A stretch of 64,000 nt of DNA, taken from the NCBI GenBank assembly GCA_030704615.1, contig CM060732.1, positions 36,270,001 to 36,334,000 of the forward strand, given 5' to 3'. The notes under the pieces were generated by a model. That model was not told the DNA's origin and searched no databases. It was given only the letters and a program-made list of their open reading frames with translations. How positions within the stretch are numbered: position 1 is the first letter of the stretch; each line of letters opens with the position of its first letter. A program made the translations under genes and the position numbers. Positions 5,740 to 61,985 of the stretch are shown here, one piece after another. The stretch comes from Takakia lepidozioides. Its lineage: Eukaryota; Plantae; Bryophyta.

Positions 5740-6812
5740 ATTGGACTACTACGCTGATACAATCTAGACTAGAGCTTTACCGCCCACCAACACAGTGCGA
5801 GGCTGTCAAGCCAAAGAGTGAGCGTGCGTCGAGGAGACAAGTAGAGTGCGTCTTATATCTCGAGCGCGAAGTGCACTTTTGAGAGAAAAAGTTCGCTAAA
5901 TATATCATTCTAAAACTTGGTTACTTTTTCTTTGTTCCGAAATTAGCCTTGACCTCCACCATCGATGAGAGAGGACGATTCTTTGTTATGATGACAAACA
6001 GAATTCAAGTTGTGTCCATATAACCATAGCATGCCTCTGCAGAGGAAGAGGAAACATTTACCGAGACCTTTGACAACACATTTGTAAGCCAGATTATGCA
6101 TAACGTCAAATCTTTAGTTCATCACTTCACAGCCCAAGTGCAAGAGAAAAAGTAGCACATCAACAGGCTTTGATCTGATCAACCAAAGATTTGCTAAGAA
6201 TGATGAGCATTGGTAGAGCACTGCTTGCATCTACCGGGGTCACTGCAATCACCATATTCTAAAGACAAACTATCCACAGTTACATATCTTCTTCCATAGC
6301 ATCACAATAGTGTGCATATGATCGCTCCCAGTCAGTGTTATGGAGTTTTTGGAGTTTCTCCATACATCCTTCTCCCTCTAGTTCATGCACTCACTCCAGT
6401 TCCGTCTGCCACATACATCGGTGAGTAGGTCAGAATGAGTTGGAAATGATGTAAAGAAACAGGAGATGGGCTGCAGCTCACGACCACTTTCATTTGCCGA
6501 ATGTGGGCATAGAGATCAAAAGGTCCAAGACATTTTTTTGGGAGAACCTGAAGGATGACGTTGAGAATGTCATGGAGAATTCTCATGGAAGCCACCTTCG
6601 CTATATGAGTGCATTGTGCAATGGCTCTGCAGATCGCAAACCGGCAAGGAACAAATATTGCCTTGCTCAATATTTTGGTGTTCAGCCATTTCTTCATCTC
6701 TTTCAGCTCAGCATGAACATCTGAATGTGGTATTAAGAACTGTAATCTATGATGAGTGTATGCACCGATTTACATTTCTGCCCATCAATTTTCTCACCTT
6801 TGCTTACTTGTC

Positions 6813-9422: not shown

Positions 9423-11173
9423 CCAAGCAGGATTAGACCAATCCTCAATCCAAAGGGCCTCCTTTGTGTGCTTATGTCTATAATCTGGTGCTCTTGGATT
9501 TCTCTGTGAAAATCACCAGCAGGCAGCTGAGCAGCCATAGCTTAAACCACAGCCTTACAAACACCAGGCTACCACTGGCACCAAGCTAGAATCATATTCC
9601 GAATAACAGGGAGGAACTTAGGCTTAGGCTACTAAAATTTTGCCCTGCTAACAAGGAAGAACAACTTACCAATAGCAACTTTAGGAGCTGCGGTTTTGCT
9701 ACTGTTATCGAGACAAAGCCATATTATCATTAATCTAGCGCTATGTGTGAGGTACAAGGTTATTGGGAAATGATGAGGTTAGACAGATCAGAGATTCCAA
9801 TCCAGAAAAAGTCATAATGCCAATTTCAGTCACAAGGTTCCTTGACCAACTCTTTCACATCCTAGATGAGAACTTCCTCACCTTATTAAACCTGTTGTCC
9901 CACCACAGTGAAGGATCCGAGAAGAAATCCTTCCAGAGCTGTTCTATGCTCATTGCTTGACCTACATGCAAGAACTGTGAGAAGGTGAGAATTCAGTCCA
10001 TTGGAGGAATGCTAGGGTAGGTTTTTTCAGTGAATCTCCCTCTCTCTTCTGTCTCTGGCTGTCACCCACTGCAGGGAAAATCTAATTCGTGAGCCTCCAC
10101 CCATGAGCCTGTGAGCGAACACTGAGTCTATGAGCTTGTGCTCAGGATTTTGGGTGAATCAGGGTGAATCATGAGCCTGAGCTGGGCACAATTCCCTTAA
10201 TCTTGGATGTGCAAAGTTTGCATGCTGCCTTTCCATGGGCAGAAGTTCGCACAATGAGTACATCTCTCTCGGCCATTATCGATCCCTCATCCTGAAGCAA
10301 TTGCTGCTCTCCACTGCTCAACAGGGACGACAACAATGTGTGGCAGGTGTATTTCGTTACCAGCCTTCCACATGGAGGAGTGAATAGAAAATGCTAGTTA
10401 CGGGATTCCACTATTCAAAGGCCGTGCCCTGTCCTAAATCTCCCCTCAGGAACAACAATGCCGGCGTTTCCCCCAAAACACGCTATCCCACACTACGTGT
10501 CTCTCGCTCTTCTGCCATAGAATGAATGCAAAGAAGATGCACATATCAAAAATTCGGGGAAGATAGCAGATCCTCAGGAAATTCGTGGACCACTTCAACA
10601 TTACACTCTATATGACCAACGTGAAATTCTCCCACAAAGATGGTTCCCTGTTCCTGGACTGGGCCTAGGAACAATCCAGTAACACGGGTCGCTCCAGCAC
10701 CCACCCAATTCCAAAGGGGCAACAGATTCACAGGTCTATACCTTTCTTCGGTATCCCTGTACGCTGGAGAGGCGTCGTATCCATCACTCTTGGGGATATG
10801 GGGCCCTGCATCCCAATCTGGCTCCCAATTTCAGCTCCACCTCCTCTCCCGATAATTTGCTCCATGATAATTTGCGCTGAAGGGGATTCCCTCCCCTTCA
10901 GCGCAAGGAGAAGACACTGCCATGAGCATGGCCCTGCCCTGCAAGCTCGTCAGAGCCATCCCTGTTGCTGCAGAGATTGAAAGCGAAGTTGGCGGCAGAC
11001 TGCAGCACCATCTCCAAAATTCTGGCGGATGATCACACGGTAGCTAGACACGACCGGCAGTTTTCTGCCGTGAGGGCTGTGGCGGCCCGTTTGCAGTTGC
11101 GGCAAAAACGTCCATTCACGTCTCTCCACACATCTCTCCCTCAACTCTGTGCTTGCATGCCCTCCTCTCTCGC

Positions 11174-34914: not shown

Positions 34915-36600
34915 GCATGCGGAAATGAGGTTCCGCATTTCCGTCGGAGTGATTTTGATTGCTGTTGGACGGAAATACGGCGCCGCATTTCCGTTTTGCA
35001 TCTTAGTCATGCTCCAGTGCGACGGAAATGCGGCACCGAGTTTCCGTCCGGGGGAAACCTTTATACTCTCCAGAACGGAAATGCGGTGCCGCATTTCCAT
35101 CCAACAAGTACGGTATGTGAAGGTGGAACGGAAATGCGGCGCCACATTTCCGTTTTGTATCTGAGGCATGGAGTTGAGGGACTGAAATGTTGCACCGCAT
35201 TTCCGTCCGTTTGATACCTTCATACTCTCCAGAACGGAAATGCGGTACCGCATTTCCATCCGAGTCGCACCTTCAGACATTCCATAACGGAAAAATACGA
35301 CGCCGCATTTCCGTTTTGTATCTGAGGCATGGACCTGAGGGACGGAAATGCTGCACCACATTTCCGTCCGTTTGAGACCTTCATACTCTTCAGAACGGAA
35401 ATGCGGTACTGCATTTCCGTTCTGACTGAAAATCGTGAACCATCGGAACTGAAATGCGGCACCGCATTTCCGTCCGAGTCGCACTTTCTGACATTCCTGA
35501 ACGAAAATGCGGCGCCGCATTTCCGTTTTGTATCTGAGGCATGTAGCTGAGGGACGGAAATGCTGCACCGCATTTCCGTCCGTTTGAGACCTTCATACTC
35601 TCCAAAACGCAAATGCGGTACCGCATTTCCGTTCTGACTGAAATCGTGAACCTCGGAACTCAAATGCGGCCGCATTTCCGTCCGAGTCGCACTTCCGACA
35701 TTCCAGAACGGAAATGCCCGCATTTCCATTTTGTATCTGAGGCATGGAGCCGAGGGACAGAAATGCTGCACCGCATTTCCGACCGGTTGAGACCTTCATA
35801 CGGTCCAGAATGGAAATGCGGTACCGCATTTCCGTTCTGACTGAAAATCGTGAACCATCGGAACTGAAATGCGGCACCGCATTTCCGTCTGAGTCGCACC
35901 TTCCGACATTCCAGAACGGAAATGCGGCGCCGCATTTCCGTTTTGTATCTGAGGCATGGAGCTGAGGGATGGAAATGCTGCACCGCATTTCCGACCGTTT
36001 GAGACCTTCATACTGTCCAGAATGGAAATGCGGTACCGCAAAATCATGAACCATTGGAACTGAAATGCGGCACCGCATTTCCGTCCGAGTCGCACCTTCG
36101 ACATTCCAGAACGGAAATGCGGCGCCGCATTCCGTTTGTATCTGAGGCATGGAGTGTGGGACGGAAATGCGACACCGTATTTCCGTCCAGGTGAACCTTC
36201 ATACTCGAACGGAAATGCGGCACGGCATTTCCGTTCGACAACTAAGATATGTGAAGGTGGAACGGAAATGCGGTACCGCATTTCCGTTCTAATTGAAAAT
36301 CATAAACCACGGGAACTGAAATGTGGTGCCGCATTTGCGTCCGAGTCGCACCTTCCGACATTCCAGAACGTAAATGCGGCGCTGCATTTACCTTTTGTAT
36401 CTCAGGCATGGAGCTGTGGGACGGAAATGCGGCACCGCATTTCCGTTCAACAACTAAGGTTGTGAAGTTTGGAACGGAAATGCGGTGCCGCATTTCGTCC
36501 AACGAGTACGGTATGTATAGCTTCGGGATGGTACTTAACGGAAATGTGGCGCCGCATTTTCACTCTAACTCATCAGACGCTGGGACGGAAATGCCATGAT
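34915..36600. repeat. Array of ~32 palindromes GGAAATGCGG(CG/CA/TG/TA)CCGCATTTCC with 53-bp period
   Basis: Starts read at 35024, 35077, 35130, 35183, 35236 and at 35344, 35397, 35450, 35503, 35556, 35609. A few distinct 31-bp spacers cycle, giving a ~212-bp higher-order unit. Confidence 0.95.
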
Positions 36601-41685: not shown

Positions 41686-41819
41686 TAGAATTTTAATGAA
41701 TTCTCTGTACATTTAAATTATCTTCCAGAGTATATAAAGGAAATTCTCTCCGTCCTTCATGTCCCCTCTCCCATGTGCTTCTCAACGACAACATCGCCCA
41801 AACCACGTCCCTCCCAAAA

Positions 41820-42775
41820 TCGGAAATGCGGCACCGCATTTCCATGTCGAAACGGAAACGTGGCAACTGCAAAAACCTCCTTTGGAAATGCGGCACCACA
41901 TTTCCAAAACTGGGGCAAGAACAATTTTCCGTTTCATGGTTTGGACATCAGAAACTGTTCGGCACGACAGTTTTGCCGATTGCCAGCTCCTTCCATGGAG
42001 GTGAATGGATATGCCACCCCGCGTGCGGAGGTCCAACATGGAAATGCGGTGCCGCATTTACATTTTGGAGATGGACGTTTTTCCAACTGTAGACCCATCG
42101 ACGGAAATGCAGTTCCCCATTCCATGATGCTAGACGGGAATGCGGCACCGCATTCCATTGTCCAATAAGAAATTTCGATGACGTACATGGAAATGCGGCG
42201 CCGCATTTTTAAAACAGACATCGTTGTTTGTCCAATTCCAGACCCTTTGACGGAAATGCGGCACCGCATTACATTGTCCAATAAGAACTTTCGATTGCCA
42301 AACAGGGAAATGCGGTGCCGCATTTCCAAAACAGACATCGTTGTTTGTCCAATTCCAGACCCGTGTGGGCATTCGGTCTTGTTGGACGGAAATGCGGCAC
42401 CGCATTCCATTGTCCAATACGAAATTTTGATGACGGACATGGAAATGCGGTGCCGCATTTTCAGAACGGACATCGTTGTTTGTCCAATTCCAGACCCTTC
42501 GAGGGAAATGTGGCACCGCATTCCATTGTGCTCTCCGGAAATGCGGTGCCGCATTTCAAGTATGGACATGGACAAGCATTAGCGATTGGACATGCTTGGA
42601 CAATTCAAGGTCCAATATGGAAATGCGGTACCGCATTTCCAATTCGAAGTATGGTAATGCCATGTCAAGAAATGAAATGTTGTACAGCATTTCCGTTACG
42701 ACCACAACGGAGGAAAGGGAGCTGCCAGAAATCGCTGCATGGAGAAAAATGAAATGCGGTGCCGAATTTCCGAGC
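41820..42775. repeat. Second array (~15 copies) of the same 22-bp palindrome with different spacers
   Basis: Copies at 41822, 41884, 42040, 42103, 42136, 42189, 42252, 42306, 42388, 42441, 42504, 42537, 42619, 42673 and 42750. Confidence 0.93.
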
Positions 42776-43047
42776 TTCGACATGTACATGTTTCTTTTTA
42801 CTCATACATGGATTTCCTTCACCTCAGAACTCTGATATCGCTGACTCTGGTATATTCATATGGACAGATACATTATAGAAATGAGACCACAAATTGTAAA
42901 CAGTGGGCCAATTACGACAGTTCTTGAACACAATGAAACACAAGCACACAGAAGTGAGGTACGATGGGTTGTTTTATTGATCGAACACGGTGTCTCACAT
43001 TTAGCAACTCCAGACAAATCTAAGCCCTTCCTCCTTCTACATGGGTG

Positions 43048-43690
43048 TCACCAAGTCGACGGAACTTCGATAGCCCTCAAAACAAGCTCATTACTGATGC
43101 GGCACCTCGAGGTAAACTGCAATGCGGTCGATCTGGTGCCCTTGGTGGAGCTGACGACAATGTCATGCCCATCAATCATACCACCATCATACATTGACAA
43201 GGTCACTGTGGGCCTCATGTGCCCGTGCGATTTGTCTTCGCAACTCAGCCGAATGTCTCCATACACTGTAAGAGCGGAGTGAACTCCACAAATATAATTT
43301 TCCCCGGTGCCGTCCTCCCTGGTCTACTGGCAGCAGTTCCAGCGCCAAAGTGAGGCCGTGCGTGATCTGTCCGGCATCCCATTCCACCTTGGTATATCGA
43401 GGTAAACAATTTTCTGGACCCACGGACCGCATTGACCCTCGCCCTCACCTCGCTCAAAGCGGTAATAGCCCTCCAAATACTCCATTGCGCGCAAAGACTC
43501 CCGCTTGATTCCAGAAGCGTCTGTGAAAACAGAGAGCCAGACAATGATGTCTCCTGATTCTGGTTTGAATATAGCATAATCGTGGCAATGATAAGGGCAG
43601 TCAGCAGGATTTCGACGGCACGACATCGTTGAAAAAGAGTAGCGGAGTACGCTCAATGACAGCAGCTCCCGGATGGAGGAGGCAGCAGCA
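43048..43690 (-). pseudogene. Orphan cargo gene A of the MULE (paralog of 55030-55765)
   Basis: DCPYHCHDYAIFKPESGDIIVW, RWNCCQ*, YGDIRL and YDGGMIDGHDIVV..LVLRAIEVP. Internal stop at a Trp codon position. Confidence 0.6.
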
Positions 43691-43825
43691 CGGTGGCTGG
43701 AAGAAGTTCAAGCAAACGCTGCAATTCCTCACAAACACTCCAGGGCACATTTAAATTTTCCCCCTACAGGAACCTGCACGGATGAAGATTGGCTGCTCTA
43801 TGAATGTAGCCGTTTCAGTTTCCTT

Positions 43826-44533
43826 TGTCGTGCGCATACATATCGCTACACAACTACATCGCTGTCCAAAACCACACAACACATGTGCACACCACACACT
43901 AGTATACCACTAGTCTACCACTAGTCCAGCCACTAGTCCAACCACTAGGCTACAACTAGTCAGTCACTAGGCTGCCACTACGCTGCCCACTATGGCAGTC
44001 ACTAGTCCACACAATGATAAAGAAGAAGAATACAAGCACAAGCTCATGCGAGCTCACAAAGCTGAAGCATAAACTCATGCATATATAACCTCATCACTCA
44101 AATACAAGTCAAGCCAAGTGCACCCCACGCCATGGGGAATCCACACTACGGCGCCATAGCTAGGCGCGGTGAGGCTCAACTCGAGAAAGATGAGCCTCCC
44201 GCGCTTGCCGTGAAGATAACCACTCCAGGGCCTAAATCTGCCTTGACCCCTGGATTGACACTTGGGCCAATCCCAAATGTCAATATGTAAAAGCTAGCTA
44301 TTTCCTAGCTAGTTTCACACTAGTGGTAAAATAACTTGACAGCTGTCGTGCGCATACATATCGCTACACAACTACATCGCTGTCCAAAACCACACAACAC
44401 ATGTGCACACCACACACTAGTATACCACTAGTCTACCACTAGTCCAGCCACTAGTCCAACCACTAGGCTACAACTAGTCAGTCACTAGGCTGCCACTACG
44501 CTGCCCACTATGGCAGTCACTAGTCCACACAAT
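43826..44533 (-). repeat. 3' terminal repeat block: A (43826-44015), B (44015-44341), GC, A' (44344-44533)
   Basis: A and A' are 190 bp and identical by eye, with multiple CCACTAG(T) motifs. B matches 54504-54839. Confidence 0.95.
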
Positions 44534-44543
44534 CGCCCCCCTA
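44534..44543 (-). other. Polypurine tract
   Basis: Minus strand reads AGGGGGGCG, then AT, then TGTGTGG (start of the A' repeat). Confidence 0.7.
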
Positions 44544-44791
44544 GCTGGTGCTTAGGTCCCTCTAAGTCCAGGTAGCCACAAGATGTGATAGTGACCATAG
44601 CCTCACTAAGTCCTCCACCACTATCCCTACTACACTCAAACTCGATAGATCAAGAGGCCGGGTGCAAGAGTTGCCCCATCGTTAGTCGCCGTCTTGCAAC
44701 CTGTGAACTTGAGCTTGGGATCTCATGTATTGACTCCTATGAGCTTGGCCTCCCATGTCTTGTTAGCTGCCTCCAGTCATGTCCACTGCCA

Positions 44792-47780
44792 CTATCCCAA
44801 GCAGTGTGGACACAACCAATCTCCGTCAGGAACCTTCTCAAGAGGTGGTGTCAAGCATCCCATATGCCAACCCTTGAGCATCGATCACACACCAGCATGG
44901 TGGCTGCCCCTTTGGCAGACCCACAGAGCATGCACCTCAAACCTGCAGGTACCACTGCCAAGTTTGGGTCAACTCTGCCATCGACATTGGGAAGGTGACA
45001 TGGCGCACAATTACGCACATGGTCCTTCCAAGTCATGCCATCCCGACCCTCCAAGATCAGGACCCCTGAGGGCAACACCTCTCGAACCCTCAGAATAACA
45101 CGCCCTGCAGTAACATCCAGAGTCGTAGGAGCAGTCTGCTGCAAATAAACATAGTCACCAGGGCTAAACCTCCGAACCCCAGGACGATATCCTCCACCAC
45201 GTATAGTGGCATACCTCAACGTATCACGGTGCTGTGCATGGCAAGGTTCTCAAAAGCCATGGGCATGACTTTCTTGAACAACTCTGCACGCTGATCACAT
45301 GCACGTACCCACACGTCCGGATCGTCAAGGTTAAGGACTTGAGCAGTGTCCCTACGAATGGCTGCAGGCAAATCCGGCTCTCGGCCAAAGAGAAGGAAAT
45401 ATGGTGAGGAGGCAAGTGATGCTTGTTGCTGAACCTGTAGCCCATGGCTAACCAAGGAACCTGAAGATCCCAATCTCCTAGGTGTCCCTTCTGCAAGCCA
45501 TACTTGCGCAAACCCCTCTTCACCGTCTGAACAACTCTCTCTGCTAAGCCATCGGCCTCAGGATGATCCCGAGAAGTGGTGCGGTGGTCTATCAAGGCTT
45601 TATCACACAAAGCCTGAAACTCCCCCAAGAACTCTCTCCCTTGGTCCGTGAGTACCTCAGCTGGAGCACCAAATCGGCTAAGCACACGATCCAAGAATGC
45701 ATACGCAGCCCCCTCACTAGCCTTGTCAGGCAATGGAACCAACTCAATCCACTTGGAGAAGTGCTCCACCATCACCAACACATATCTGTGGTGGCGCATA
45801 GTCAGTGGCAACGGTCCTGCGAAGTCAAGACTCCACCTGTAGCCCAATCCCATGATGGTAAAGGATGCAACTGTGGTGTAGGGGCGTTGAATGAAGCACG
45901 CACCCTGTCACACACCATGCACCTAGCCACAAACTGTTGCACCTCTGTATGCATACCACGCCACCAATACTGCCCCTGCAGTAAACTGTGAGTGCGTCGC
46001 ACTCCAAAATGCCCCAACTCCTCATGGGCATGCGCACTAACCGTGCACGCTGTGTGGGGTGAGGCACAATCCTCACCCGACCATCCTCCCACACTCGAAG
46101 TAGGTGTATCCCCTCCCACTTGAACCTCTTGGCTCGTTGCAGGATCCGATCCCTCTCCCTGGCAGTCACAATGGCTGCCGTGTCTCCCGTGCGGAGGTAG
46201 TCCAACACAGCCGAATCCTCATGTATATCTCTGGCACCACCTAGCTCATCACTAGCCTCAGGGTCCTCAGACACTCCGTCTACAGTCATCCCTGTTGTAG
46301 GTCCAATCTGACCTCCCGATGCCAAGATACACAAAAATGCAGATGCGTGCCATCCCGGCACCATCTCCTCGTCCGTCTCACCATGCCACCGAGCTCCAGT
46401 GTCATCCTGCTGGCTCATGCATGGATTGCGACTCAATCCATCCGCATCCCGATTGACCAAACCCGGTCGATGCACAACCTGAAAGTCATACTCCTGGAGT
46501 ATAAGTGCCCACCGTGCAAGCTTCCCCGTAAGCTTGTCTGACTCCATCAACCACTTGAGTGGCTGGTGATCCGTGACAAGGGTGAAAAGATTGCCGTATA
46601 GATAGCACCTGAAGTGTGCCACGGCCCACACTGCAGCTAAGCACTCTCCCTCATATGAGCTGTACTTAGCCTCTGCAGCGTTGTTCGAGCGGCTAGCGTA
46701 AGCCACTACGAACTCTCTTCCCTCATCATCCACCTGTGAGCACCGCTCCAAGCCCCAGCATGCTCCAATCCGTATGCAGCTGAAAGGGACGCCCCTGATA
46801 GGTCGTCTCAAGATAGGCGCCGAGGTCAACCTCGCCTTGAGCTCTTGAAAAGCTCGTTCCTGCTCATCTTCCCACTGCCACTCCTGGTCCACCTTGGTCA
46901 GCTTGGTTAGAGCCTTTGCAATGGTACTAAATCCCTTGACAAACCGTCTATAATAGTTTGCCAACCCCATGAAAGCTCGAACTCGGCTCACATCCGTGGG
47001 GCGTGGAATTTGTGCAATGGCCTCTACCTTAGTCTGCTGTACCCCCAATCCTCCAGGATATATCATGTGACCCAGATACTCAATCTGGTTGTGGAAAAAC
47101 TTGCACTTCCCCGGATGCAACTTCAATCCGTGCGCTCTCAAGCGCTCCAATACCACCTGAAGGTGTCTCTCATGCTCCTCCATCGTAACACTAAAGATGA
47201 TGATGTCATCTATGTAGCACCGAGCAAAGTCCACCCCTGCTAGAATCCTATCCATGACTCTCTGAAACTCTGCAGGAGCATTCTTAAGCCCAAATGGTAA
47301 GAACCGCCACTGATATAGGCAATCCTTGCCGTGCTCATTGATCCCCCAGAATGCCGTCTTCTGCTTGTCCGCCTCCTTGATTGGCAACTGGTGATATCCG
47401 GATCGTAAATCCAAAGTGCTAAAGGCCTTAGCATGCCCGATGGCATCAAAGATCTCCTCTGGTGTTGGCATGGCATACTTATCGGACTTGGTCTGACGAT
47501 TTACAGGCCGGTAATCACCGCACATACGTCTCTCCGTCCAATTGCCATAGACATCCTTCTTGGCTGGCATCACTGTGGCTGAAGCATACTCTCCACCAGA
47601 GAGCTCCACCAAACCTGCCTCCCAGAGATCTTGAGTCCTCATCTGAATCAAAGACCTCTCCATGTCACTGTATCTATAGGGTCTCCGAAAGATTGGCGTG
47701 TCAGTGGCCAACTCAATACGGATCTCTTGACCCTTCAGTGCTCCCAAGTCCTTCAAACTGAAGGCAAAGCAATTCCTGTA
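44792..47780 (-). pseudogene. pol: pol C-terminal part: reverse transcriptase, RNase H, integrase and PHD finger, several frameshifts
   Basis: RT: RMCGDYRPVN, LDLRSGYHQ, LPFGLKNAP, YIDD. RH: EGECLA, TDHQPL, ADGLSR. INT: HEELGH..CMVC, LDFAGP, TDQGREF, GLAER. PHD: CMLC..CDRC..WHMGC..WLCPHC. Confidence 0.93.
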
Positions 47781-48219
47781 AGCCCTCAGGAACCGCCGTA
47801 TACGTCGTCTCTCTCCTCCGGTGACAATGGGTCCAATGTCAGGCTCCCAATTGTCCTCCGTAACTACAACCTTAAGTCCAGTGGGCTTAGAGGTAGAGGA
47901 CGCGTCCCGTGGTTGCTATGCTGCAACCTCTTGAGCAGTACTCCCTACCTGCTCAGTCAATGACAAGGCTCATCCTGCCCCATCATCTCATCCTTGAGGA
48001 CCTCCTCAACCGAGAAGAATCCCCAACCTCATCCATCACAGCCGCCTTGGGCTGCCAACTCCCTCTGAACCTCGAGCACCTCCCACGTGTGCCATGGATG
48101 CATGCACCCCGTGGTCCTCACATGCTCGCCCCCACTCACTGCCTGTACCGTCTCGGTAGGCAGAGAGACCATTGAGGGAAGTGTATTCCGCACTCTGCGT
48201 TGCTCAGCAGAGCCAAGCT

Positions 48220-49170
48220 GATAATCCAGGTCAAGCAATTGAGATCCATTGCTTGCCCCAACACTTGACGACGTGATGCCTCAGAAAGAGACGACACCGT
48301 GGTACCAGTGGTAAAACCCATTGCCCGCTCACGCTCGTCAGCATTAGGCTCCACTAACTGCTGCAACTGAGCATCCCACAGGAGGCCAGGTCCACTATCC
48401 CGGAAAGCATGCGATCCTGGGAAGCTGAGCAGTGTAGGTAATGCTGCTCGTGGTTGACCCACCTTGTTGACCACTGCCAAAGGCGAACGGTCATCGTGTC
48501 TCACACGCTGAGACTGCCTCCCTGTGTCCAGAATGTTATCCACTGTGAGATGTGCTGGCCGCTGCCCCATCAAATGCACGCTTGAGCAGTGCGGGTGGCA
48601 TCAAGTTAGTCCACCATAGCCGTGGACGATGAGCCCGTGACCCCACTGTAGCTGCATCTAGCAACACTGCTGACCCAAGCCACGACCGGACTTGATGCAC
48701 ACTGGCCATCACCCTGGCCCGAGAATCGCCCATCAGTGGCACATTCTCCAAGATGTATGCTGGAGATACAGCTTGATGAAGCTGCAAGTGGCGCAAAACC
48801 CGCACCATCTCCCAAAACAGACCCGACCTCGAGTCTCGCAATCCATTGCCATGCCCGGCTGATGAATGCCCTTGGCAGGGCCAACCTGCCACTACCAGAT
48901 CAATGGAGCCAACCCGCTCCAAATCCTGCGCCCCCAGCAACGAAATGTCTGCTGGCAAGGCCTGCTGATATCCACGAATTGCAGACACCGACAACAACTC
49001 AGGGTACCGCTGCACCAACTGAGCAACATGGCGAAGTGAAACGCGTCGTGCAGTCTCATCCCTCTCCACATACAGGTAACGCCGAACTCGTACACCTGCC
49101 TGTAACACAGCAGCCAATCCGGTGCTGATCCCGCCAAACAAGTCCAGAAGACAAATGCCTTCATCCGGAT
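48220..49170 (-). CDS. C5 cytosine DNA methyltransferase domain within pol (one frameshift near 48560)
   Basis: Motif I LDLFGG, II YVERD, IV AGWPCQG (catalytic PC), VI ILENV, VIII AHRPRLWWTN, IX ERERAMGF and X RRQVLGQAMD. Confidence 0.92.
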
Positions 49171-49589
49171 ACTGCCACACAATAGGTGTGGTGTCCAATG
49201 GAGACAATTGAGGTGGTCCTGGTGCAATCCCCACACTCTCCTCTCCTGACGGTACAAAAGCCTCCACCCAGGCTTGTTGCACCCGTCGATCAGCATCCCG
49301 CTGCAAATCCTTGCTCGTGCCCCACAATGGAGTCTGAGCAACCATGGTAGGCAACTCCGCCATACCATACATGTCATCCTGCTCTCCCGGAGGTGGTACA
49401 TCCTCTGAATGAGCATTGCCCTCAAGCAACTCTCTAGGCCAACTCACTGCCGCTGTGAATGCTGCTAGTGTCGGCATCTTGCCTCGCTGGGCAACCGCAA
49501 CTCCTCCTATGAACGTCACAGGGAGCTGCACACGCCGGCCCTCCCCTGACTGCCATGCAGGCCTATAGGAAGCTGACTCCTCCCAAAAA

Positions 49590-49880
49590 TCCAGGGTGAA
49601 GCCCATGGGGTACAACACTGCCCCACCAACCAGGACATCGTATGAGACTGCGTCTGTCACAATGGCCTTGGCTCGCATCACTGAGCCATCTGTAGGGTGA
49701 TCCGGCCGTAGTCTGATAGCCAACTCACGCCGTGTCATGCCCCGAGCCTGCTCCGATCCTCCCAGAGACGTCTGTATCTGGAAAGGACAAGGCTCCATAT
49801 CCGCCTCCGTGAGGCCCAAGCCTGCAATAGCAGCTCTGCCCAGCATCAATGGCTGAGCTCCCGAGTCCAACAAGACCGCA
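49590..49880 (-). CDS. Retroviral-type aspartic protease domain, in the same ORF as the methyltransferase
   Basis: VLLDSGAQ active site and YDVLVG closing motif in ORF 48536..49906. Confidence 0.85.
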
Positions 49881-49899
49881 GGGGTACCTCTTGCCTGCC

Positions 49900-52070
49900 G
49901 GTCCACTCAAACAGAAAATGCCATCCTGGTTGTCTAACATGACAACTCCAGGTGTCACCATGGCGCGCTCAATGGCTGGCCTAGCTGGCAGCTCCATCAA
50001 CCTGGCAGCTGCAGCTTGCCATGGCGCCGCCGTGGCAGTCTTGACCCTCAAATCCGAGGATCCCTCCGGCACTACACCTCCCACTATCTCCGCAGAAGAT
50101 GAAGTAACCTCCCCACTCTCACAGAGTGTAGCTGCCAGCCTGAACACCTCAGCTGGTCTTACCCCCGGCGTCGCAATCATGGTAGCCGAGAACAATGGAG
50201 CCTGGCACACAGATGTGGCCGCTCCTAGCAGCACACTAGCTGCCGTAGCCTTGGCAACACTAGGTAGTGGTGCTACCCGTGTAGCTCTCCCCAATGGCAT
50301 AGTAACCTCCGCCTCGGTAACAGTCGGGCGAGAACTAGGTGCCATGGATGGCGTCGACACTGTCTCCGCCAATGTGAATGACTGAGGAAGCCTAGCCTGA
50401 CGGCTTGCCTCCCCACGCTGTGGATCCAACTCCACCTCTGCACCTCGTGGCTCAGGAACTCGTGCTGCTCCTCGAGTCACGGCTGCAGCAGACTCCACCT
50501 GCACTAGTGGTAGTGCTGCTCCACACATGAATCCCATGCCTCCCATATCTCCTCCCTCAGGAGCAGGAGGTGGACCATCCGGCCTTAGAGCCGGTACCAC
50601 CTGAGCTGTAGCCATGGCAGCGAGCCTCTGCTCTAGCTGCTGAAGCCGGTTGGCCATGCCTTGGTCAACACCCTGACCTCGCGTCCTTGGCCACGTTGAG
50701 CTTGCCCTTGGCCTGCACCTCGTGGCTGGCCACCTCGTCCTCTCTGGGCTGCTCCACCTCGCCCCCGGCCACCATTGTTCCCTTGGAACTGGCCTGGGCG
50801 CAACTCAGGATGCAAACCATAACACTGGCCTCTCCATGCCCGTGCTTGCCACAATGCCCACACTGCAACTGTGCAGGCTGTGCATGTGCCGGCCCTTTGC
50901 CTCCCTCTGGGCAATCCTTCTTGACATGGGGTCCTCCACATGTCCAGCACACCACATCCGCCCGTTGTTGGCCAGCAAATGAAGGGAGAGACCCCTGCAT
51001 CTGAGGTCCTCTCTGCCCTTCCCTGAGCTTCACCTGAGCCCCCTTGTTGCCTTGAGCACGTTGAGGTAGTGGTTGGCTAGGAGCACCACTACCCCGTGGT
51101 GTCTCCTTAGCAAATCCCACCATGACCACTCGTTCCTCCACCATGTTGAGCTCTATCCGCTCTGCCAGCAAAAACACATTTGCTAAGGTGGGTTGGGCCG
51201 CTTGTAGGAGAGTTGCATCCCGCACCCTTCTCCTCAGCTCCTTGTCCAATATCCCATACCAGAATTGGACTGCCTGAGCTTCCGTAACCCCTTGGGTTAC
51301 ATTTATCAAGCGCCTCATGCGAGTGAAAGCCTCCCTCAAGCTCTCGGTCGGCTTCCGTTGGAACTCTTGCAAGCTCCGCAACTTCTCTGTCCTCACCCCT
51401 TGGTAGTTCCCTCTCAACTCTTCGAAGAACTCCACAACAGGGTTGAAGGCAGGCACGGGTGCTAGTGCTGGTGCGGTAGTGGCTTGGGTGGACGTCGTAG
51501 CTACTGTACCACCAGTCCCACTGCTGCTTGCTGAAGCTGCCGGTGCAGCGGCAGGTGTAGCCACTGCCCTCGTGGCTCTAGTGCCCCTAGTGATGGAGAC
51601 ATAGTCGGGTGACCAGTACATCCTCCACTCCTCGATCTCAACCTCATGCCCCCGCCTGAACTCATGGTAATCATCCATAGGCGGCCCCTCAAGGTGCTGA
51701 AACAGCCCTTTCCATGCCATGAAGGCGTAAATAGTTGTGGATTGCGCATTTGCTGCAAATCACACCAACTATCAAACTCTTGGATAAAATCATCCAACTC
51801 GATGGTGCCCACCGCCCCAGAGTACCTTCGTGGCCCCTTGGTAGCTCCATACATCTCCTCCATTGTGTCCCACAACAATGGCAAAGAAACAACTTGCACC
51901 GCCGGTATGAGTCCTCCTGATTCACAATCCGAATCAGAACCTTCCGTGGAAGACACAGGAGGTGAAGGTGGCCTAAACCGCACACCTCGTCTCGTGTACC
52001 CACTAGTATCGCTAGTGCTCGAACCGGCACTGTCCCCAGCAACTAGTGGCACCTCCGTGTTGACACTCAA
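49900..52070 (-). pseudogene. gag: gag with two zinc knuckles and linker, frameshifted
   Basis: LDDFIQEFDSW, FQRKPTESLREAFTRM, CWTCGGPHVKKDC and CGHCGKHGH..C. Confidence 0.82.
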
Positions 52071-52804
52071 CCGGTCATGAACATGTCCCTAACCCCCTCT
52101 CCACAAGGTAACCGGGTAGAGAACCTGTTGCGGCTTATGGTTTGGAATACTAAGTTCCTAACATAGCCTACACCTGTACCTGCATCCACCGCAAGCACTC
52201 CTATGGTTGGCTGGTCATCACCTCCAACCTCACCACAGGAGAAACAATGATGGTCTGGCTGGTCATCACCCCAGCCTCACCATCGACAGCATGCTCTAGG
52301 ACTGGCCGGTGATCAAATCCGGACCAATCACCTATAAAAACAAGCGCCCACACAAAACTAGCATGGCGCACAGTCAAGCATGCAGGTATGGAGGGGATCC
52401 AAACACAAGAAATCAGAACGACAACTCCCCACACCAAAAACAACTCCACGGTGTTGCTCCTGCAAGGACACCCCAGCCCAAACCCGGACTGACTCTTGCC
52501 TCCACCTACGGAAAGGTCTTGGCCTAATGAGAGGGTGGAAACTACGAGGAAGAGAAGCTAAAGCAATGCCTAACCCCAGCATGCCTCATCCCAACACTCT
52601 CCTCTCCTCTCTTCCCACTTGCATGACCATGGGAATATCATGAAGATACTCCTCAAACCGCCCTCCACGAGCTTCAAAATTCGGCCTTCCAGACCACATG
52701 CCAGTCCTTAGGCAGTCCACCAGTGCCTCCACGAGTCAGCACAGGCCGTCCACAGGTCAACACGGGCCACCACAGACCAGCACAGGCCCACACAGCTCAC
52801 TGGT

Positions 52805-53490
52805 CGTCACAGTCCCACAGGCCACTGGGCACAGCCTGTCACAGCCCCTCACAGCCTGTCACAGGCCTGTCACAGGGCCACAGTCACAGTCACAGCCTAG
52901 CCAGCACAGCCCGTCACAGCCCCAAAGGCCTCACATTACATCACATCACAGCCCGTCACAGCCCCTCCGTTTGTTTCACAGCCTGTCACATCCATCACAG
53001 CCCGTCACAAAGGCCTCACGGCCTGTCACAGCCCTCACAGCCCCTCACACATACACAGCCCGTCACAGCCCCACAGGGCACAGGGCACAGCCTGTCACAG
53101 CCCCTCACAAGCCCGTCACAGCCCCAAAGGCCTCAGGCACAGCCTGTCACAGCCTGTCACAGCCCCTCACAGCCCCAAAGGCCACTGGGCACAGCCTGTC
53201 ACAGCCTGACACAGCCCGTCACAGCCCCACAGGGCACAGGGCACAGCCTGTCACAGCCCATCACAGCCCATCACAGCCTGTCACAGCCTGTCACACAGCC
53301 CGTCACAGCCCCACAGGCCACTGGGCACAGCCTGTCACAGCCCGCTCACAGCCCCACAGGCCACTGGGCACAGCCTGTCACAGCCGCGTCACAGCCCCAC
53401 AGGCCTCAGGGCACAGCCTGTCACAGCCGCACAGCCGTCACAGCCCCAAAGGCCACTGGGCACAGCCTGTCACAGCCTGACACAGCCCAA
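52805..53490. repeat. Degenerate ~10-11 bp tandem repeat (CACAGCC(T/C)GT) in the retrotransposon 5' leader
   Basis: Dozens of CACAGCC units. The two ORFs spanning it are repeat artefacts. Confidence 0.9.
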
Positions 53491-54487
53491 GCTGTGCCAC
53501 AGCCATACAGCAGAATCAGCTCCTTTGCTTCATTTCTTGCACCCACAAACTGATAATACAAGCTTCAGCAGGCTGAAAGCCATGCTCTACATGCCCTACA
53601 GGGAAACCAGCCCCTTCCTTCCTTTCTTGCACTCCCACACTAAAAGTGCAAGCCTTCACCAGGCTGATAGCATGCTCCACACATACATTGCCCTCACATA
53701 AGGGAAGTCAGCCCTTCCCTCTTCCTTGCTTGCCCTCCAAGCTTGAAGATGGAAGCTTCAATGAGCTGAATACATGCTCCACACATGCAACCTCTTCACA
53801 CAAGAGATATCAGCCCCCTATCTTGGCTCCTTGGCTCCTTGATGCTCTCTATGAACAGACTAAGCACTCCATAGCCTTTGCCAAGCTCCTGAAACCCTAA
53901 GGCTTACATTTCCAGCCACAAGACACTTCTCTTTGTTGCAAGAACTCTTCTTCCAAGCTCTAAACCCTAGGTGCACATTCCATGGCCTTGCCGCACCTCT
54001 TAGCTCCTGATCCAGCCCTGCTCTTGCCATGACAAGAGCCCTCTCAATGCTGAAGCTCGAGATTGAAAACCCAATCTCACCATACTCCACAAAGTGCACA
54101 CTGATTTGCCCCAAGCAAAATCAGCCCTTTCGCTTGGTCTTGCAATCCTTCACACAATGAAAGCTCGCATTCCAAGTCCAGTTCTCAGCTTTGCCACCAA
54201 AGCCACTATAACCTGCTCTTGACTGGTCCTCTTCCCAATCGTGCTTGCTCATGCATGTACACAATCTGGAACCATCAAGGTGCTCTGGAATTACCTGCAG
54301 CATGGTGCTTTTCATCTCTGAAGCTGAAGATCGATGCCAAGGTCTACCACCTCGTAACCCACATCGCCTCCGCTTCTAACAACTAAGAGCTCCACGGTGC
54401 TCCTTGCATAACAACTTGGTTTCTCTCATTCTCAAGCAAAAACCACAAGTGCTACAACTAACTCGTATCTAGCACTCATAGATACGA

Positions 54488-54503
54488 GCTCATCTTTCTC
54501 GAG
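54488..54503 (-). other. Primer-binding site complementary to the element's own terminal repeat (self-priming type)
   Basis: Plus-strand GCTCATCTTTCTCGAG abuts repeat B' and is the exact reverse complement of CTCGAGAAAGATGAGC at 54669-54684. Confidence 0.78.
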
Positions 54504-54839
54504 TGATAAAGAAGAAGAATACAAGCACGAGCTCATGCGAGCTCACAAAGCTGAAGCATAAACTCATGCATATATAACCTCATCACTCAAATACAAGTCA
54601 AGCCAAGTGCACCCCACGCCATGGGGAATCCACACTACGGCGCCATAGCTAGGCGCGGTGAGGCTCAACTCGAGAAAGATGAGCCTCCCCCGCGCTTGCC
54701 GTGAGATAATACCACTCCACTCCAGGGTCCTAAATCTGCTTTGACCCCTGGATTGACACTTGGGCCAATCCCAAATGTCAATATGTAAAAGCTAGCTATT
54801 TCCTAGCTAGTTTCACACTAGTGGTAAAATAACTTGACA
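54504..54839 (-). repeat. 5' terminal repeat B' (half-LTR only)
   Basis: Matches 44015-44341 with a few substitutions and indels. No A segment on either side. Confidence 0.95.
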
Positions 54840-55029
54840 CCTTCCCTGCCATGCAAACTATGGGCAGTCAGTGCCAGGTGGGCCTATAGCCACTTGAGAC
54901 GACGAAGTCCATTCCCCTTTCGATGTAAATGCGGCGCCGAATTTCCATCCGGGGGATGGACTTCAGTGACAGATTTCAAACTATACCCCGTGGATGAGAA
55001 AGAGGTATTGGTTCATCCACCGCTGGCGT

Positions 55030-55765
55030 GATGAACACGTTACACGATGATTGGTGGGTACGTGGGACCCAGATGCTCCATTGTTGGAGCCCGCCCTGCT
55101 ATTCCGCTTCTCATTATTTCGAAAATCTAAGGGCTTCGTTGCTGTCCGCAAGGTCATTGTCATCGGCATCAAAGACGTCCTCAGGTCCTCTTTTGCAAGG
55201 ATGCCGTGCTTCCGGAACCGGGACGACTGCCCTTATGAAGGCTTCGATTATGCAATGTATTCGGCCACATCGGGAGACATCGTTATCTGGTACACAGTTT
55301 ACACAGAAGATACTGGTTCGAATGTGGAAACATTGTCCGCTTTTGAGTATATCCATCCCAGGCCACTACGCCTTCGAGCGGGGTGACGATCTTGGTCTGA
55401 GGAGTCCGTGGCTCCTGCGCATCCTTGATTCCGATTTTCCCAGCTACGACGGGCACCCATGCAGAAGAATGCGCACTGCTATCTGTTGCGGTGGAACTGC
55501 TGCCAGTGGACTTGGGTGGACTCCATCGGAGAGACGTATACTCCTGAAGGAATGCGCTCCTCTTCTCCATTGTATGGGGACATTCGCATTGGTGTGGACA
55601 ACGAAAACGTGAAGCTTTCCATATTCGATGGTGGTATGATTGAAGGGCACGACATTGTGGTGAACATCAACAAGGGCGGTACAACGGCTGCAATCCAGTT
55701 TACCTGGAGGAGCCCGATGACTCATAGCTAGTTCTCAGAGCAGTCGAAGTCCCATTGACAACGTG
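55030..55765 (+). pseudogene. Orphan cargo gene B of the MULE (paralog of 43048-43690)
   Basis: DCPYEGFDYAMYSATSGDIVIW, RWNCCQW, YGDIRI and FDGGMIEGHDIVV..LVLRAVEVP across frameshifts. Confidence 0.6.
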
Positions 55766-57033
55766 ACTTGTATTCAGAAGGCACAGGGCTAAAGATTTGT
55801 TTGCACAATCATCACAGTAGACGTGCTTCAAATGCAATTCATGTGGATCAATAAAAACCCCAAAGTGCCGTCTTTTTGTTCTATTCTGTATCCATCGTTC
55901 CCAGAATGCATCATTCTTCATTTCGTTTGGGATTGGGAGTGTGGGTGGATTTTGCAAGTGGCTGGTAGACTGAAATGGGCCCCCATTGTACAGAGCAGTA
56001 TCACCCTACCATTCGCGAAACATTGCCTTTCAATATGTAATTCTAAAAAACATTGCCGAACCTCCTTCATCGGGAGGTCCTTCTCCCCCTATGACCATGA
56101 CACCCTAAACCCTATTCCCGCGGACACCCATTTCCGGAAAATATTCCTGCTCATGTTTTTTACGACACTTACGACTCTGCTCATGGCTCATGCCGCTCAT
56201 GGCTCATGAAATAGCAGCCCCTGGTGTTTCATTCAAATCATCTTAGGAGTCCTTCAGCTCTCTGATGTGTAAATGAGAATTATGTCAAAGGTTGCAAGTG
56301 AATTTTTAATTTGAGCTCATGCCCTATTTGCAATAATCTCAAGGACTAGTTAAAGCTTTGTGGAATGTTCTTGAAATGTGGGTGCCCTGTGGGTGCAAGA
56401 TTAGTAAGATTCTAGAAAGTAGTTCTCAAGAATACACATGCCACCCACGCTGCAAACCAAGTCTAGTTGATCCTCCAAAACAATGGGCAGAAACTTCAAA
56501 TCATTGAGGCCCAGTATGTTTGAAACTACCATGTATACATTTGCATTGATTTGGATCTGAAACAACACGTAATGTAACAGTGTACTACCTCATCGAGGCC
56601 CAATATATTTGACAGACATTTACAACCGATCATGAGTCCTATCACGCAATTAAACAGACTTAGCTCGACAACATTGAAAGTAAAAATAGAATTTATAGTC
56701 TGTCAATATTGAGTAAATATTACACATTTCAGCTGGCATATGCTGCCCGCACAAGGTATACACGTAGAAGTCCTGTAGAATAGATAACACTGGTGCCACC
56801 TCCTACAGTCATGACAAGTTCTAGCATCTGGCAGAGAGAGAGAAGATAGAAATAAGAAGAACAACCAAATTACTAGATAGGCATCTTCATCAAAGAAGTG
56901 CAAAGATGCAGTGAGGCAACTTATTAGAGGCAAGTCCAGGAGAACACTAGTACTAAATTGAGCAACTAACGATGGCATTGCGCCAAGCTAGTACATGCAG
57001 GCGGCTTTACGAACTGTGACATTGTTGCAATCT

Positions 57034-58708: not shown

Positions 58709-59299
58709 TATGCCTTCTTCTCCCTTGCCCTGTTTCAAATCATCTCACCAGTGCTTGGGCCCGGAACTTGGAAGCTTTTGGCTTTACTAAAAAGTTCTCT
58801 AGGCTGAAGGATTCTTTAGGACTTGAATCTATCAAACCATTCAGGGAGAAAAACACCCGCTTGGAGTCCAGAGACGAGAAGGCACAGGCTGCAGAAAGAG
58901 CTACTGACTATTCATTATATTTTTGAACGAAGAACTCTTATCATTTACCGACTATGCATGGTCCAATCCCAATATTGGCTTCTCAAAAATCTGGTATGTT
59001 CTGAATTTGAATTTGGAAGCAGGAAGGACGAAAGATTGCAGCAGTGTGTAACAGGGCAGGGATGGCACTATTAAAATACTCTGGGCAACTGCTTGAAAAC
59101 ATATGCAGACGTTATGGGACAATTGTCGAGACCTTACTTCTTTGATGGGAAGAGAGTGGTCAGGTCTTATCCCTCCTGAAAGGTGAGAATGGAGCAGTGA
59201 AAGGTAAGACCAGTACCCACACCCCCATTTCTCATATGGTGTGTTCAAAATTGGAGTAGAATCCAGGTTAACAACTTAGCAAAAACCAGTGCACAGCGT

Positions 59300-59745
59300 T
59301 TCATCACTATTTACATCAGTTGGATGCAAGACACACTCTACTGCTGCAATACCTGCACTATCTGACTAAACTTCGTTTTGAATTCAACAGATTTGTAGTG
59401 TCACTATTGAAAAGAGACTTTAGGGACCAAGAAAGCTCGTTCCACTACTTTGGGCCAGGACATGAGACTCAACAAATTAGTGTCGACCATTGGACCACAT
59501 CACATCATTGGGTCTTCAGTAATATTACAGTGCCAATTTGTGCAGTGAGTGTGACTTGAAAAGGCCATGAGCAAAAACCACTGGTGGTCAGATTGGGTTT
59601 ATGGTCCATGTCAGAATACTGGCCAAATGAGCACATTTGTGTTGTTGTGCAATACAAGTGTTTCCACATGTTTGATGTGTCTCCTCAGAGTCTCCAGCAT
59701 GCCCTAACTGGACAGCGCTCCCAGAAGTCGAATGAATTCATGCAT
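59300..59745. repeat. ~430-bp dispersed duplicate, copy 1 (copy 2 at ~61570-61985)
   Basis: Collinear similarity from CATCACTATTTACATCA to GGACAGCGCTC. Confidence 0.85.
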
Positions 59746-61569
59746 GGAGTACGTAGCAGCTGGACGTGGTAAACGTTACTGGCTGTGACAACTGCTAGTA
59801 GGGATCTGCCTTGGCGAAGTCGGCTTTCACTCGAAGGCCTGCCAGCCGAGATGACACAGTACCAACATTCATGTCATCATCACCCTTCCTTACCCTGTTT
59901 TAACTGGTTCTGTAAATGACATGGTTCTAACACATATGACCCACTCATTACTTGGAGGAAAGAAGCAGAATAAAGAAAACCTTCCTTATCTCACATTTGC
60001 GATGAAAATGAAATCAGTAGGCCTCCAGCAAGTCAACGATAGAGTGCAAACAACATGACTGGTCACGATAGATGGAAAACTATACTAGTGCATTTGCAGG
60101 AAGACTGGATGGCCCTACACACCCCGGCAAGCACCAAAAATGGTGGGTGACAGCGAGCTATCCACTACTCCCTCAAGCACCATAAGTACTCGTCATCCTA
60201 AGAAGGATAGAGCATCTTATGGAGGGATCATGTTTTGTGGAGGTGGACAAGTCTTCACAGCCACTTGCAAAGACCGGACGCTAGTGCTGAGCAAATTACA
60301 AACCCTATGCACCCACATGGAATTCCAATTGCCTGGCCAGGGAGGGCTTTGTAGCAGAACTTCCAATATAGAAAAAAACAATCCATGAAGCTCGTGATTC
60401 TGCAGTTTGAATGCAGTCTGACCACTTGATTAACAGTACAAGTAGGATGTGCTGATGACCAGGCACAGTTTCTGAGAAAACCACAGTCTTGCTGATTGCA
60501 AGGCGGGTAGTAACAGGGGCTCAAAAGAAGTCAACAAAACAGAAATGATCTGCCACTTTATGGCCTATCAAGAGAATAAGAGCAACCACCGCATACGAAA
60601 GAACACGAGGCAGTACCATTTCGTATTTATCAGCCAGATTGTAGACAGTCATGTGCTTCCAAGCAGACCCAAATAGGTGCTCATCACCAAAGGAAAAGGT
60701 AAAGGGCCCAGGAGAGGAGGACCGCACTAAAGAGGAGGCATCGCACCCCTGATCGCACCACATCTGTTACCACTCAATTCCACCACACCGGCTGTCCCTG
60801 TTACTCGTCTCTCCCAGGAACATGAGTCAACCTACACCACCACCAAGACCCTCCTCTCTCCCCCTCCTTCACAGGCCTGTCTGCAATGCTGGTTACATGC
60901 ACTCCATAAACACATTTGAGTGACAATGCAATCAGCACCTCTCCCTCCCTCTCTGTTGATTTATGGCCACAATGGGAAGCCATATGTAATGAGTACATCA
61001 TCTGAATCCCTCTTGCCTCACTAAAATGCAGCTGTCAGAGCAGTCACCACCACCATGTGTCACATCTGACAGGGATCAGGTATAACAACAATGGAGGAAA
61101 TAACAGTATGCTACGTGTAGATGTCGATGCCAGCTGAATCAAAAACATTCCCTGTAACCTAAGTATCATCGACTTGCACAATTCAGGCCGAGGTTTCAGC
61201 ATAGCAGGGATTGTTCCATGTGTCCCCTACACTCTTCATGCCTTTGTGCCAAAATAGCAATGGGATAGGTGGAAGCGCTGCACCCACTTAAGACTGCCTG
61301 TTTCCCTCAAACAGTGTGCCCTCCCCAAAAGTAGGTTCGGCTATAACACAGCCATATATATCGAAAAAATCATGTCATGCATACAATCCACACTCAAACC
61401 CACAGGTGCCTAACTGTATGGCAACCTCAGGCCAAGTCTCATATCTCTGTGAGGTGAAATACTAAAAGCAGACAAGGAAGTTCAAACTCCCATTGAGGAA
61501 CACGCCCTGAAGACACAGAGAAAGGTCATACAAACACTAATCGAGAAGATCCCATCAGACTCTGGTGTT

Positions 61570-61985
61570 GCATCACTATTTACATCAATTGGGTGCAAGA
61601 CACACTCTACTGCTGGAATACCTGCACCATCTGACTAAACTTCATTTTGAATTCAGCAGATTTGTAGTGTCAGAACTGAAAAGAGACTTTAAGAAAGCTC
61701 GTTCCACTACTTTTAAAGAGCACATGAGACTCAACAAATTAGTGTCGACCATTTGACCACATCACATCATTTGGTCTTCTGTAATGTTACAGTGCAAATT
61801 TGTGCAGTGAGTGTGAGTTGAAAAGGCCATGAGCAAAAACCTGTGGAGGTCATGGTCCGTGTTCCAAATGAGCACATTTGCGTTGTTCTGCAATACAAGT
61901 GTTTTCACACATTTGGTGTGTCTCCTCAGAGTCTCCAGCATGCCCCAACTGGACAGCGCTCTTAGAAGTGGAATGCATTTATATG
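61570..61985. repeat. ~430-bp dispersed duplicate, copy 2
   Basis: Collinear with 59300-59745. Confidence 0.85.

Follow-up and report, generated by a model that had tools for sequence, protein, structure and literature searches.

A Gypsy retrotransposon of the moss Takakia lepidozioides with insertion ends at a palindrome inside its long terminal repeat

The element at 43826 to 54839

The DNA analyzed was a stretch of 64,000 nucleotides from Takakia lepidozioides (GenBank assembly GCA_030704615.1, contig CM060732.1, positions 36,270,001 to 36,334,000 of the forward strand; hereafter, the window), in which positions 43826 to 54839 hold a Gypsy retrotransposon whose long terminal repeat (LTR) sequence is split into two blocks, X and Y. 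Sense is the minus strand, and X and Y are repeats B and A, respectively, of the original prediction from the letters of the window, which was followed up here. In sense orientation, the order was target-site duplication (TSD), X1 (54839-54504), primer-binding site (PBS), internal region, polypurine tract (PPT), Y1 (44533-44344), GC, X2 (44341-44015), Y2 (44015-43826), and TSD; the predicted layout, X - PBS - internal - PPT - Y - GC - X - Y, agreed in all coordinates. One metagenome scan by reverse transcriptase (RT) yielded 80 related loci (given by L numbers below), in which self-comparison and cross-BLAST delimited another three LTR families (A, B, and C). Same-family copies were sought in public contigs aligned to window positions 43640-44362; the contigs came from four runs of the 17 listed, covering 3 samples and 3 studies, and the other 13 include four under a second species label (shares 0.29-0.35). 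Sequencing runs are always written with the word run (run X2) and repeat copies without it (X2). The features of the element are as follows:

43822-43825: 4-bp TSD CCTT, left copy, present once in empty-site contigs
43826-44015, minus: Y2, terminal copy of Y (5' part of U3), identical to Y1 at 190 of 190 nt (100%); element 3' end ...CGACA
44009-44021, minus: X/Y junction, where the LTR end defined by reverse transcription bluntly abuts the LTR start so defined; contig-bridged and blunt in relatives too
44015-44341, minus: X2, comprising the 3' part of U3, R, and U5 (putative U3/R/U5 assignment)
44180-44195, minus: self-primer motif in X2, complement of the PBS
44338-44347: palindrome GACA-GC-TGTC, two putative att half-sites with a 2-nt spacer; single in the window, kept in relatives
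44344-44533, minus: Y1, PPT-adjacent copy of Y
44534-44542, minus: PPT AGGGGGGCG; relatives have a G-run at the same place
44801-45237, minus: integrase C-terminal region and PHD finger, frameshifted; tblastn match to the intact second open reading frame (ORF2) of L003, with PF00628 matched in the corresponding ORFs of L007 and L078
45227-46059, minus: integrase H2C2 zinc finger and DDE core (D-X34-E); PF17921, PF00665
46032-47915, minus: RT and RNase H; PF00078, PF17917, PF17919
47916-47918, minus: TAG stop followed by CAACCA, directly before the RT ORF; candidate read-through site
48208-49906, minus: protease region and C5 cytosine methyltransferase; PF00145 (E 5.5e-13), tblastn match to L003 ORF1
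50668-51759, minus: gag; PF03732 (E 0.002, below the Pfam cut-off)
52737-53488: tandem repeat array in the 5' untranslated region
54488-54503, minus: PBS CTCGAGAAAGATGAGC, self-priming type; 16 of 16 Watson-Crick pairs with the X motif in the fold
54504-54839, minus: X1, 5' repeat; element 5' end TGTCAAG..., self-primer at 54669-54684
54840-54843: 4-bp TSD CCTT, right copy

The palindrome GACAGCTGTC was found once in the window, at 44338, and the element termini, TGTCAAG and CGACA, are its two halves minus the central GC, flanked by CCTT on both sides, as had been predicted. Contigs of the empty site had CCTT (1 contig of run X5) or CCTA (4 of run X2 and 1 each of run X5 and run X6) with the right flank directly after it; the 4-bp duplication is taken to be real because these contigs hold the 4-mer once, although the flank is itself repetitive and the empty sites may be paralogous. 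Since the PPT lies before Y1, ordinary reverse transcription would yield YX-internal-YX, which would put the inserted ends within U3. X1 and X2 were 2 substitutions and 4 indel events apart. The predicted end-to-end LTR-LTR join near 44014 read TTATCATTGTGTGG in sense, with an A that could belong to either side, and was bridged by contigs of run X2 (record 1, 43960-44070) and run X4 (record 9, 43941-44064).

The 16 nt after X1 that form the PBS are complementary, without mismatch, to a motif located roughly 160 nt inside X (44180-44195 and 54669-54684). A tRNA-type PBS was rejected, as there is no TGG start and the complement lies in the element itself; complementarity of the PBS to the element's own LTR is the mark of Tf1/Tf2-type self-priming. 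The sequences differed in families A and B, and the pairing and its position, downstream of a TATA-like box, did not. Among 11 copies, pairing was 16/16 in the window and L007, 15 in L027, and 14 in L021 and L064 (each reached by 0 of 500 shuffles), and one copy had 13 pairs (1 of 500 shuffles).

The gag-protease-RT-RNase H-integrase order of Ty3/Gypsy was present, with gag matches, like the protease matches in L003 and L078, below the Pfam cut-off. The nearest solved structures to the integrase were those of Ty3 (best, E 9e-9) and foamy virus integrase. The gap from the second D to the E in the window (45227-45907, minus strand) is 34 residues, one fewer than in Ty3 and foamy virus in the alignments; this spacing was seen in all 41 homologues with the motif found (120 examined) and is possibly a clade marker. 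PF00145 was matched in the window, L003, L007, L064, and L078. A DDE integrase without a recognizable tyrosine recombinase had been predicted, and the Pfam matches PF00665 and PF17921 bear this out; a hidden tyrosine recombinase was not found by Pfam in 15 window ORFs or in another 48 ORFs, the two long open ones of L003 among them, a search that short broken fragments could escape. Relative to the open ORFs of L003, at least 8 frame changes were counted in the window copy; they may equally reflect decay or assembly error. In L003, the TAG at 5083-5085 alone splits open ORFs of 1369 and 1047 codons. The stop before the RT ORF is followed by CAACCA in the window, CAGTTA in L003, and CAACCC in family A, a context that resembles the leaky-stop read-through signal CARYYA. 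Of 44 distinct contexts, 5 had the exact motif, and the stop was not seen at this position in family B loci.

Ends of copies in the family and in relatives

Loose contig ends of the window family were evaluated from the 24 listed of 360 rows of such ends. At 43826, at least 58 contigs of run X2 and at least 38 of run X4 departed from the reference, with consensus agreement of 0.41 and 0.38, indicating varied flanks; some ran on into the palindrome, and others differed. At 44341, the position in X2 equivalent to the start of X1, at least 16 contigs of run X4 departed (agreement 0.40, median length 224), and run X5, from an independent study, had at least 3 contigs with varied flanks at 43825 (agreement 0.57). 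At the ends defined by reverse transcription (44015), the loose ends listed led only into the PPT (10, 3, 1, and 1 contigs; agreement 0.94-1.0) or the PBS (6 contigs; agreement 1.0) and were uniform, unlike those at the palindrome halves; none came from a canonical YX-internal-YX copy. Depths of X and Y were about equal in run X6, which fits every copy form and was not used as evidence.

Among the 80 related loci, 35 had no LTR match, L055 had none above the score cut, and several stopped short of the ends or were broken before them (7 inspected). The end counts exclude L003, L004, L005, L025, and the L078 side fragment (no clear flank junction), the 3' count also excludes L027 (contig ends in X2), and duplicates at the same site were merged (5' rows, 14 to 12; 3' rows, 34 to 29). 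All 12 distinct 5' ends started at the start of X, i.e., the right half of the palindrome (11 with TGT and 1 with TCT), and all 29 distinct 3' ends stopped at the end of Y, the left half (27 ending in ACA). The 3' ends had two forms, Y-GC-X-Y (16/29) and Y only (13/29), and an XYX 5' end, with Y before X, was found in 0 of 12 (Fisher p = 0.001 for 16/29 versus 0/12). The original prediction had expected X-internal-YXY, XYX-internal-Y, and X-internal-Y copies; the first and last were found and the second was not. Canonical copies with integration ends at the PBS/PPT-defined ends, named in that prediction as its refutation, numbered 0 among these 12 5' and 29 3' ends, as among the loose ends above. 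A 4-bp duplication flanked 5 of 5 full-length relatives, exactly in 3 and with one mismatch in 2 (by chance, a pair would match exactly with a probability of 0.006):

L007: X-internal-YXY, TSD AAGG/AAGG
L064: X-internal-YXY, TSD ATTA/ACTA, one mismatch
L039: X-internal-Y, TSD TGTG/TGTG
L078: X-internal-Y, TSD CCAA/CCAA
L020: X-internal-Y, TSD GGTA/AGTA, one mismatch

The att sites had been predicted to lie inside the LTR, and the ends of many copies, in the contigs of the family and across the clade, establish this displacement. That the window holds a one-off rearrangement, a nested insertion into a solo XY repeat, or an assembly artefact would fit its many frameshifts, the indels between X1 and X2, and the lack of a long record spanning the block; with the same ends in dozens of family contigs and the agreement of 12 5' and 29 3' ends in three other families, such an origin is hardly credible. 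Overall, the ends strongly indicate a real, clade-wide, non-canonical Gypsy life cycle.

RT homologues were found in Calypogeia, Marchantia, Riccia, Closterium, and Klebsormidium; a PHD finger is present in many of them and a methyltransferase in some. In the RT tree (52 rows), the window grouped with Marchantia, Calypogeia, and family A (98/92), family C stood next to this group, family B was farther away, and three outgroup rows split at 100/100. The Klebsormidium rows, which are not known to be KnitGypsy-Dnmt3 (see below), were more distant.

Several further forms were seen. Family C PPT-Y-X-Y ends without an adjoining pol match were present in L015 (14295-14773) and L064 (2860-3344, reverse) and are possibly from deleted or non-autonomous elements, and in L079 (5075-5165), the Y repeat of a family C element apparently harbors a family B element. 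In L003, the locus with open ORFs, positions 8556-9317 read PPT-Y-GT-X and then continued without a second Y; this is probably a collapsed high-copy assembly and may represent a tandem or canonical form. The 80 loci contained no solo XY; having been chosen by RT, they say little on this point. In viral_contigs, the palindrome pattern gave 0 matches, and 0 of 59 candidates of a protein scan were confirmed.

Palindrome, junction, and proposed route of integration

The palindrome was retained across families whose LTRs were otherwise too diverged for a BLAST match. Its spacer in 17 loci was GC in 9, one transition away in 5, two transitions away in 1, and other in 2, and the changes in relatives mostly look like methyl-cytosine decay. 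The ends defined by reverse transcription were not conserved (TTGTG..TTATCA, GTTGTG..TTTTCA, ATACATG..TCAAT, and GTTTGG..TTG). Symmetric CAG/CTG sites lie beside CG in the att palindrome of the window (44336-44349), the element encodes a cytosine methyltransferase, and old copies have C-to-T and G-to-A changes at the palindrome; that methylation regulates palindrome cutting is speculation.

At the X/Y junction, the start of U3 directly followed the end of U5 in the window, family A, and 4 of 6 family B loci, and one extra base lay between them in the other two (L068 and L058); family C has no matching 5' copy for comparison. Distances between Y1 and Y2 in family B were 0.074 within elements versus 0.101-0.124 between elements, i.e., the copies group by element and not by position, and those in family C were 0.139 versus 0.216-0.220. 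Both Y copies of the window share two minority variants, at 43916 and 43981, which are absent or rare in run X5 and run X6. Because Y1 and Y2 group by element and share these variants, Y2 is likely re-copied every cycle from Y1 as the single U3 template, and the pattern fits an X/Y junction that is remade each cycle. A junction inherited through RNA would work differently: a transcript would extend into Y2, and strand transfers like those of PAT/Ngaro would give circular or permuted cDNA without end-joining, with the integrase still cutting the palindrome. Such inheritance would share the fixed asymmetry of Ngaro, A1-ORFs-B1A2B2, as outlined in PMC8547959, and no junction variant was seen among the rows listed for the window family. 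It is nevertheless unlikely, given that the PBS and PPT positions let ordinary LTR reverse transcription copy only Y1-GC-X, no primer site in Y2 was noted, Y1 and Y2 group by element, and the junctions fit the expected blunt cDNA ends in three families.

The inserted copies point with good probability to a DDE integrase that cuts the mid-repeat GACA-GC-TGTC palindrome after CA on both strands, in cDNA whose blunt ends are likely joined; the action of the integrase at the palindrome is very likely, and the joining and its timing are the more conjectural part. RNA would start in X1 and prime itself, its 5' motif pairing with the PBS, and reverse transcription would produce a linear YX-internal-YX cDNA of the ordinary kind, with ends other than the att sites. 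The integrase would then act on the two halves of a single palindrome, that on the left, PBS side. Cutting both strands after CA would produce 2-nt GC overhangs, like processed retroviral ends, to be lost on repair, and insertion with a 4-bp stagger would produce the TSD. The free U5 and U3 ends would be bluntly joined, before integration (as a 2-LTR circle) or during it, giving X-internal-Y-GC-X-Y. The left palindrome may be preferred because it would be the first to become double-stranded once the second strand jump has taken place. X-internal-Y copies could come from a one-LTR circular intermediate of reverse transcription, from cutting at both palindromes, or from later Y1-Y2 recombination; without a second R, they are predicted to be dead ends. 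X-internal-YXY would be the propagating form because only it keeps the second R.

The original prediction had the element integrate from a circular intermediate cut at the palindrome. The position of the ends agrees with this; the equal numbers of XYX and YXY forms expected from it do not appear. In its strict version, a covalently closed 2-LTR circle would be cut at either palindrome, X-internal-YXY would be as common as XYX-internal-Y, and XYX would go unseen through recombination to X-internal-Y or poor assembly. The blunt U5-U3 junction, to which two of the six family B loci add a single base, is in favor of such a circle, and X-X recombination in XYX copies could have given the 13 of 29 Y-only 3' ends and the 3 full-length X-internal-Y copies with TSDs. 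Precedent is provided by HIV-1, for which such circles can feed integration according to PMC4372172. Against it stand the 0 of 12 XYX 5' ends versus 16 of 29 YXY 3' ends, and loss in assembly is not an obvious cause of this difference, as two X copies at 91-94% identity were resolved in the same contigs (L007, L027, and L064). Cutting at either palindrome of a closed circle is thus improbable as the source of these copies.

Several points weigh against the proposed route with left-palindrome cutting and end-joining, or limit it. Cutting by the integrase and joining of the ends are read back from the ends of inserted copies, and preference for the left palindrome is a proposal made to explain the missing XYX form. 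In family A (3 loci), the grouping of Y copies by element was not clear (0.056 versus 0.059-0.065), and homogenization of Y1 and Y2 could also come from gene conversion or from polishing of the assembly. PBS pairing was weak (10-12 of 16) in 5 of the 11 copies (L004, L020, L039, L073, and L078). No single contig among those listed covers the whole Y2-X2-Y1 block, which has no long-read confirmation, and run X2 and run X4 are one sample, maybe the source of the window. With 24 of 360 loose-end rows listed, rare canonical copies are possible. The window copy, with its frame changes, is itself no evidence of current activity, and the junction spacer of HIV is 4 nt versus 2 nt here.

Related systems and other features of the window

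Published work is cited from excerpts. The repeat geometry is already in print for a Gypsy element: the Fig. 4c legend of de Mendoza et al. 2018 (PMC5890265) describes KnitGypsy-Dnmt3 of Klebsormidium nitens as having DIRS-like repeats with Gypsy domains, and the DIRS layout is given elsewhere in that paper as A-coding-B-A-B. The excerpts of PMC5890265 give no ends, TSD, palindrome, PBS/PPT position, or mechanism for KnitGypsy-Dnmt3, with a TSD mentioned only for the LINE. The window element is like KnitGypsy-Dnmt3 in its Gypsy domains, cytosine methyltransferase, and DIRS-like repeat layout; the methyltransferase was assigned as C5 by PF00145, so that the likeness holds at that level and not at that of the Dnmt3 subtype. 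Klebsormidium RT-RNase H proteins were 42-44% identical to those of the window element, which differs from KnitGypsy-Dnmt3 in its land-plant host, X-internal-Y forms, and self-priming. A 2026 preprint (10.64898/2026.05.21.726589) names a streptophyte Gypsy-DNMT3, and its excerpt does not discuss the repeats. No account of a Gypsy element with its integration ends inside the LTR was found in the literature searched, with subscription journals and Repbase reports outside it.

Ngaro is described in PMC8547959 with A1-ORFs-B1A2B2 repeats and a tyrosine recombinase instead of an rve integrase. The same A-ORFs-B-A-B repeats as in PAT/Ngaro were seen in the window and at 16 of 29 3' ends of relatives. 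PAT/Ngaro are not known to make a TSD; the elements described here differ from them in their DDE integrase, in their TG...CA ends, and in a TSD of 4 bp, seen in the window and at 5 of 5 full-length relatives. With Ty3/Gypsy elements they share the domain order, a DDE integrase with an H2C2 zinc finger, TG...CA ends, and a short TSD, but not two complete terminal LTRs with PBS/PPT-defined integration ends. The element is Gypsy by its enzymes and not by its LTR layout. Tf1/Tf2, Gypsy elements of fission yeast, have ordinary terminal LTRs, unlike the window element, and resemble it in self-priming, with a primer complement of 16-17 nt here. Self-priming from a complement in the element's own LTR matches Tf2 as described in PMC5341516 and is mentioned only in general terms in the excerpt of PMC2864245. 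In retroviruses and LTR retrotransposons, the cDNA ends are usually the integrase substrate.

In the IS3 family, e.g., IS911, circles are integrated by a DDE enzyme that cuts where two ends adjoin across a short spacer; these are DNA transposons, whose transposase makes the junction without reverse transcription. In retroviral circles (HIV-1 and foamy virus), the palindrome is the end-to-end junction, and cutting it restores a normal provirus; here, the palindrome is a permanent part of U3, apart from the end-to-end junction, and its cutting is apparently the only route. HIV-1 integrase cuts the internal palindromic LTR-LTR junction symmetrically, after CA on both strands (PMC1905944), and PMC4372172 notes both that LTR circles were long regarded as dead ends and that 2-LTR circles are able to serve as HIV-1 integration precursors. 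On balance, though with less assurance than for cutting at the palindrome, it is suggested that in a Gypsy clade extending from charophyte algae to land plants, integration was uncoupled from reverse transcription, the att sites were relocated to U3, where they form a permanent palindrome, and a retransposable copy arises only from end-joined cDNA. If true, this would be an LTR lineage with obligatory end-joined (circular) precursors, in which the PAT/Ngaro layout was reached with a DDE enzyme. The clade would then be a natural system for asking whether circles can be a productive precursor and a tractable DDE-based model for the origin of split-direct-repeat elements. LTR finders that expect two full terminal repeats would likely miss or mis-bound such elements.

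The surroundings of the element (41805-43825 and 54844-55803) belong to a different multi-copy repeat, in which a GGAAATGCGG..CCGCATTT palindrome forms arrays; arrays of a similar kind were present at 34920-36500, and 43011-43651 and 55176-55803 are inverted copies with 65% identity. A direct repeat of about 440 nt (85%; 59298-59741 and 61567-61982, 2.3 kb apart) is possibly a small LTR element. Host genes of the window were as follows, the latter three assigned by eye:

2443-3120: phenylcoumaran benzylic ether reductase-like gene
4552-5745: F-box protein
6813-9512: PPR protein of 899 codons
17332-18648: exon of a glycine-rich RNA-binding protein

The best named match of the reductase-like gene was from Sphagnum (61%).

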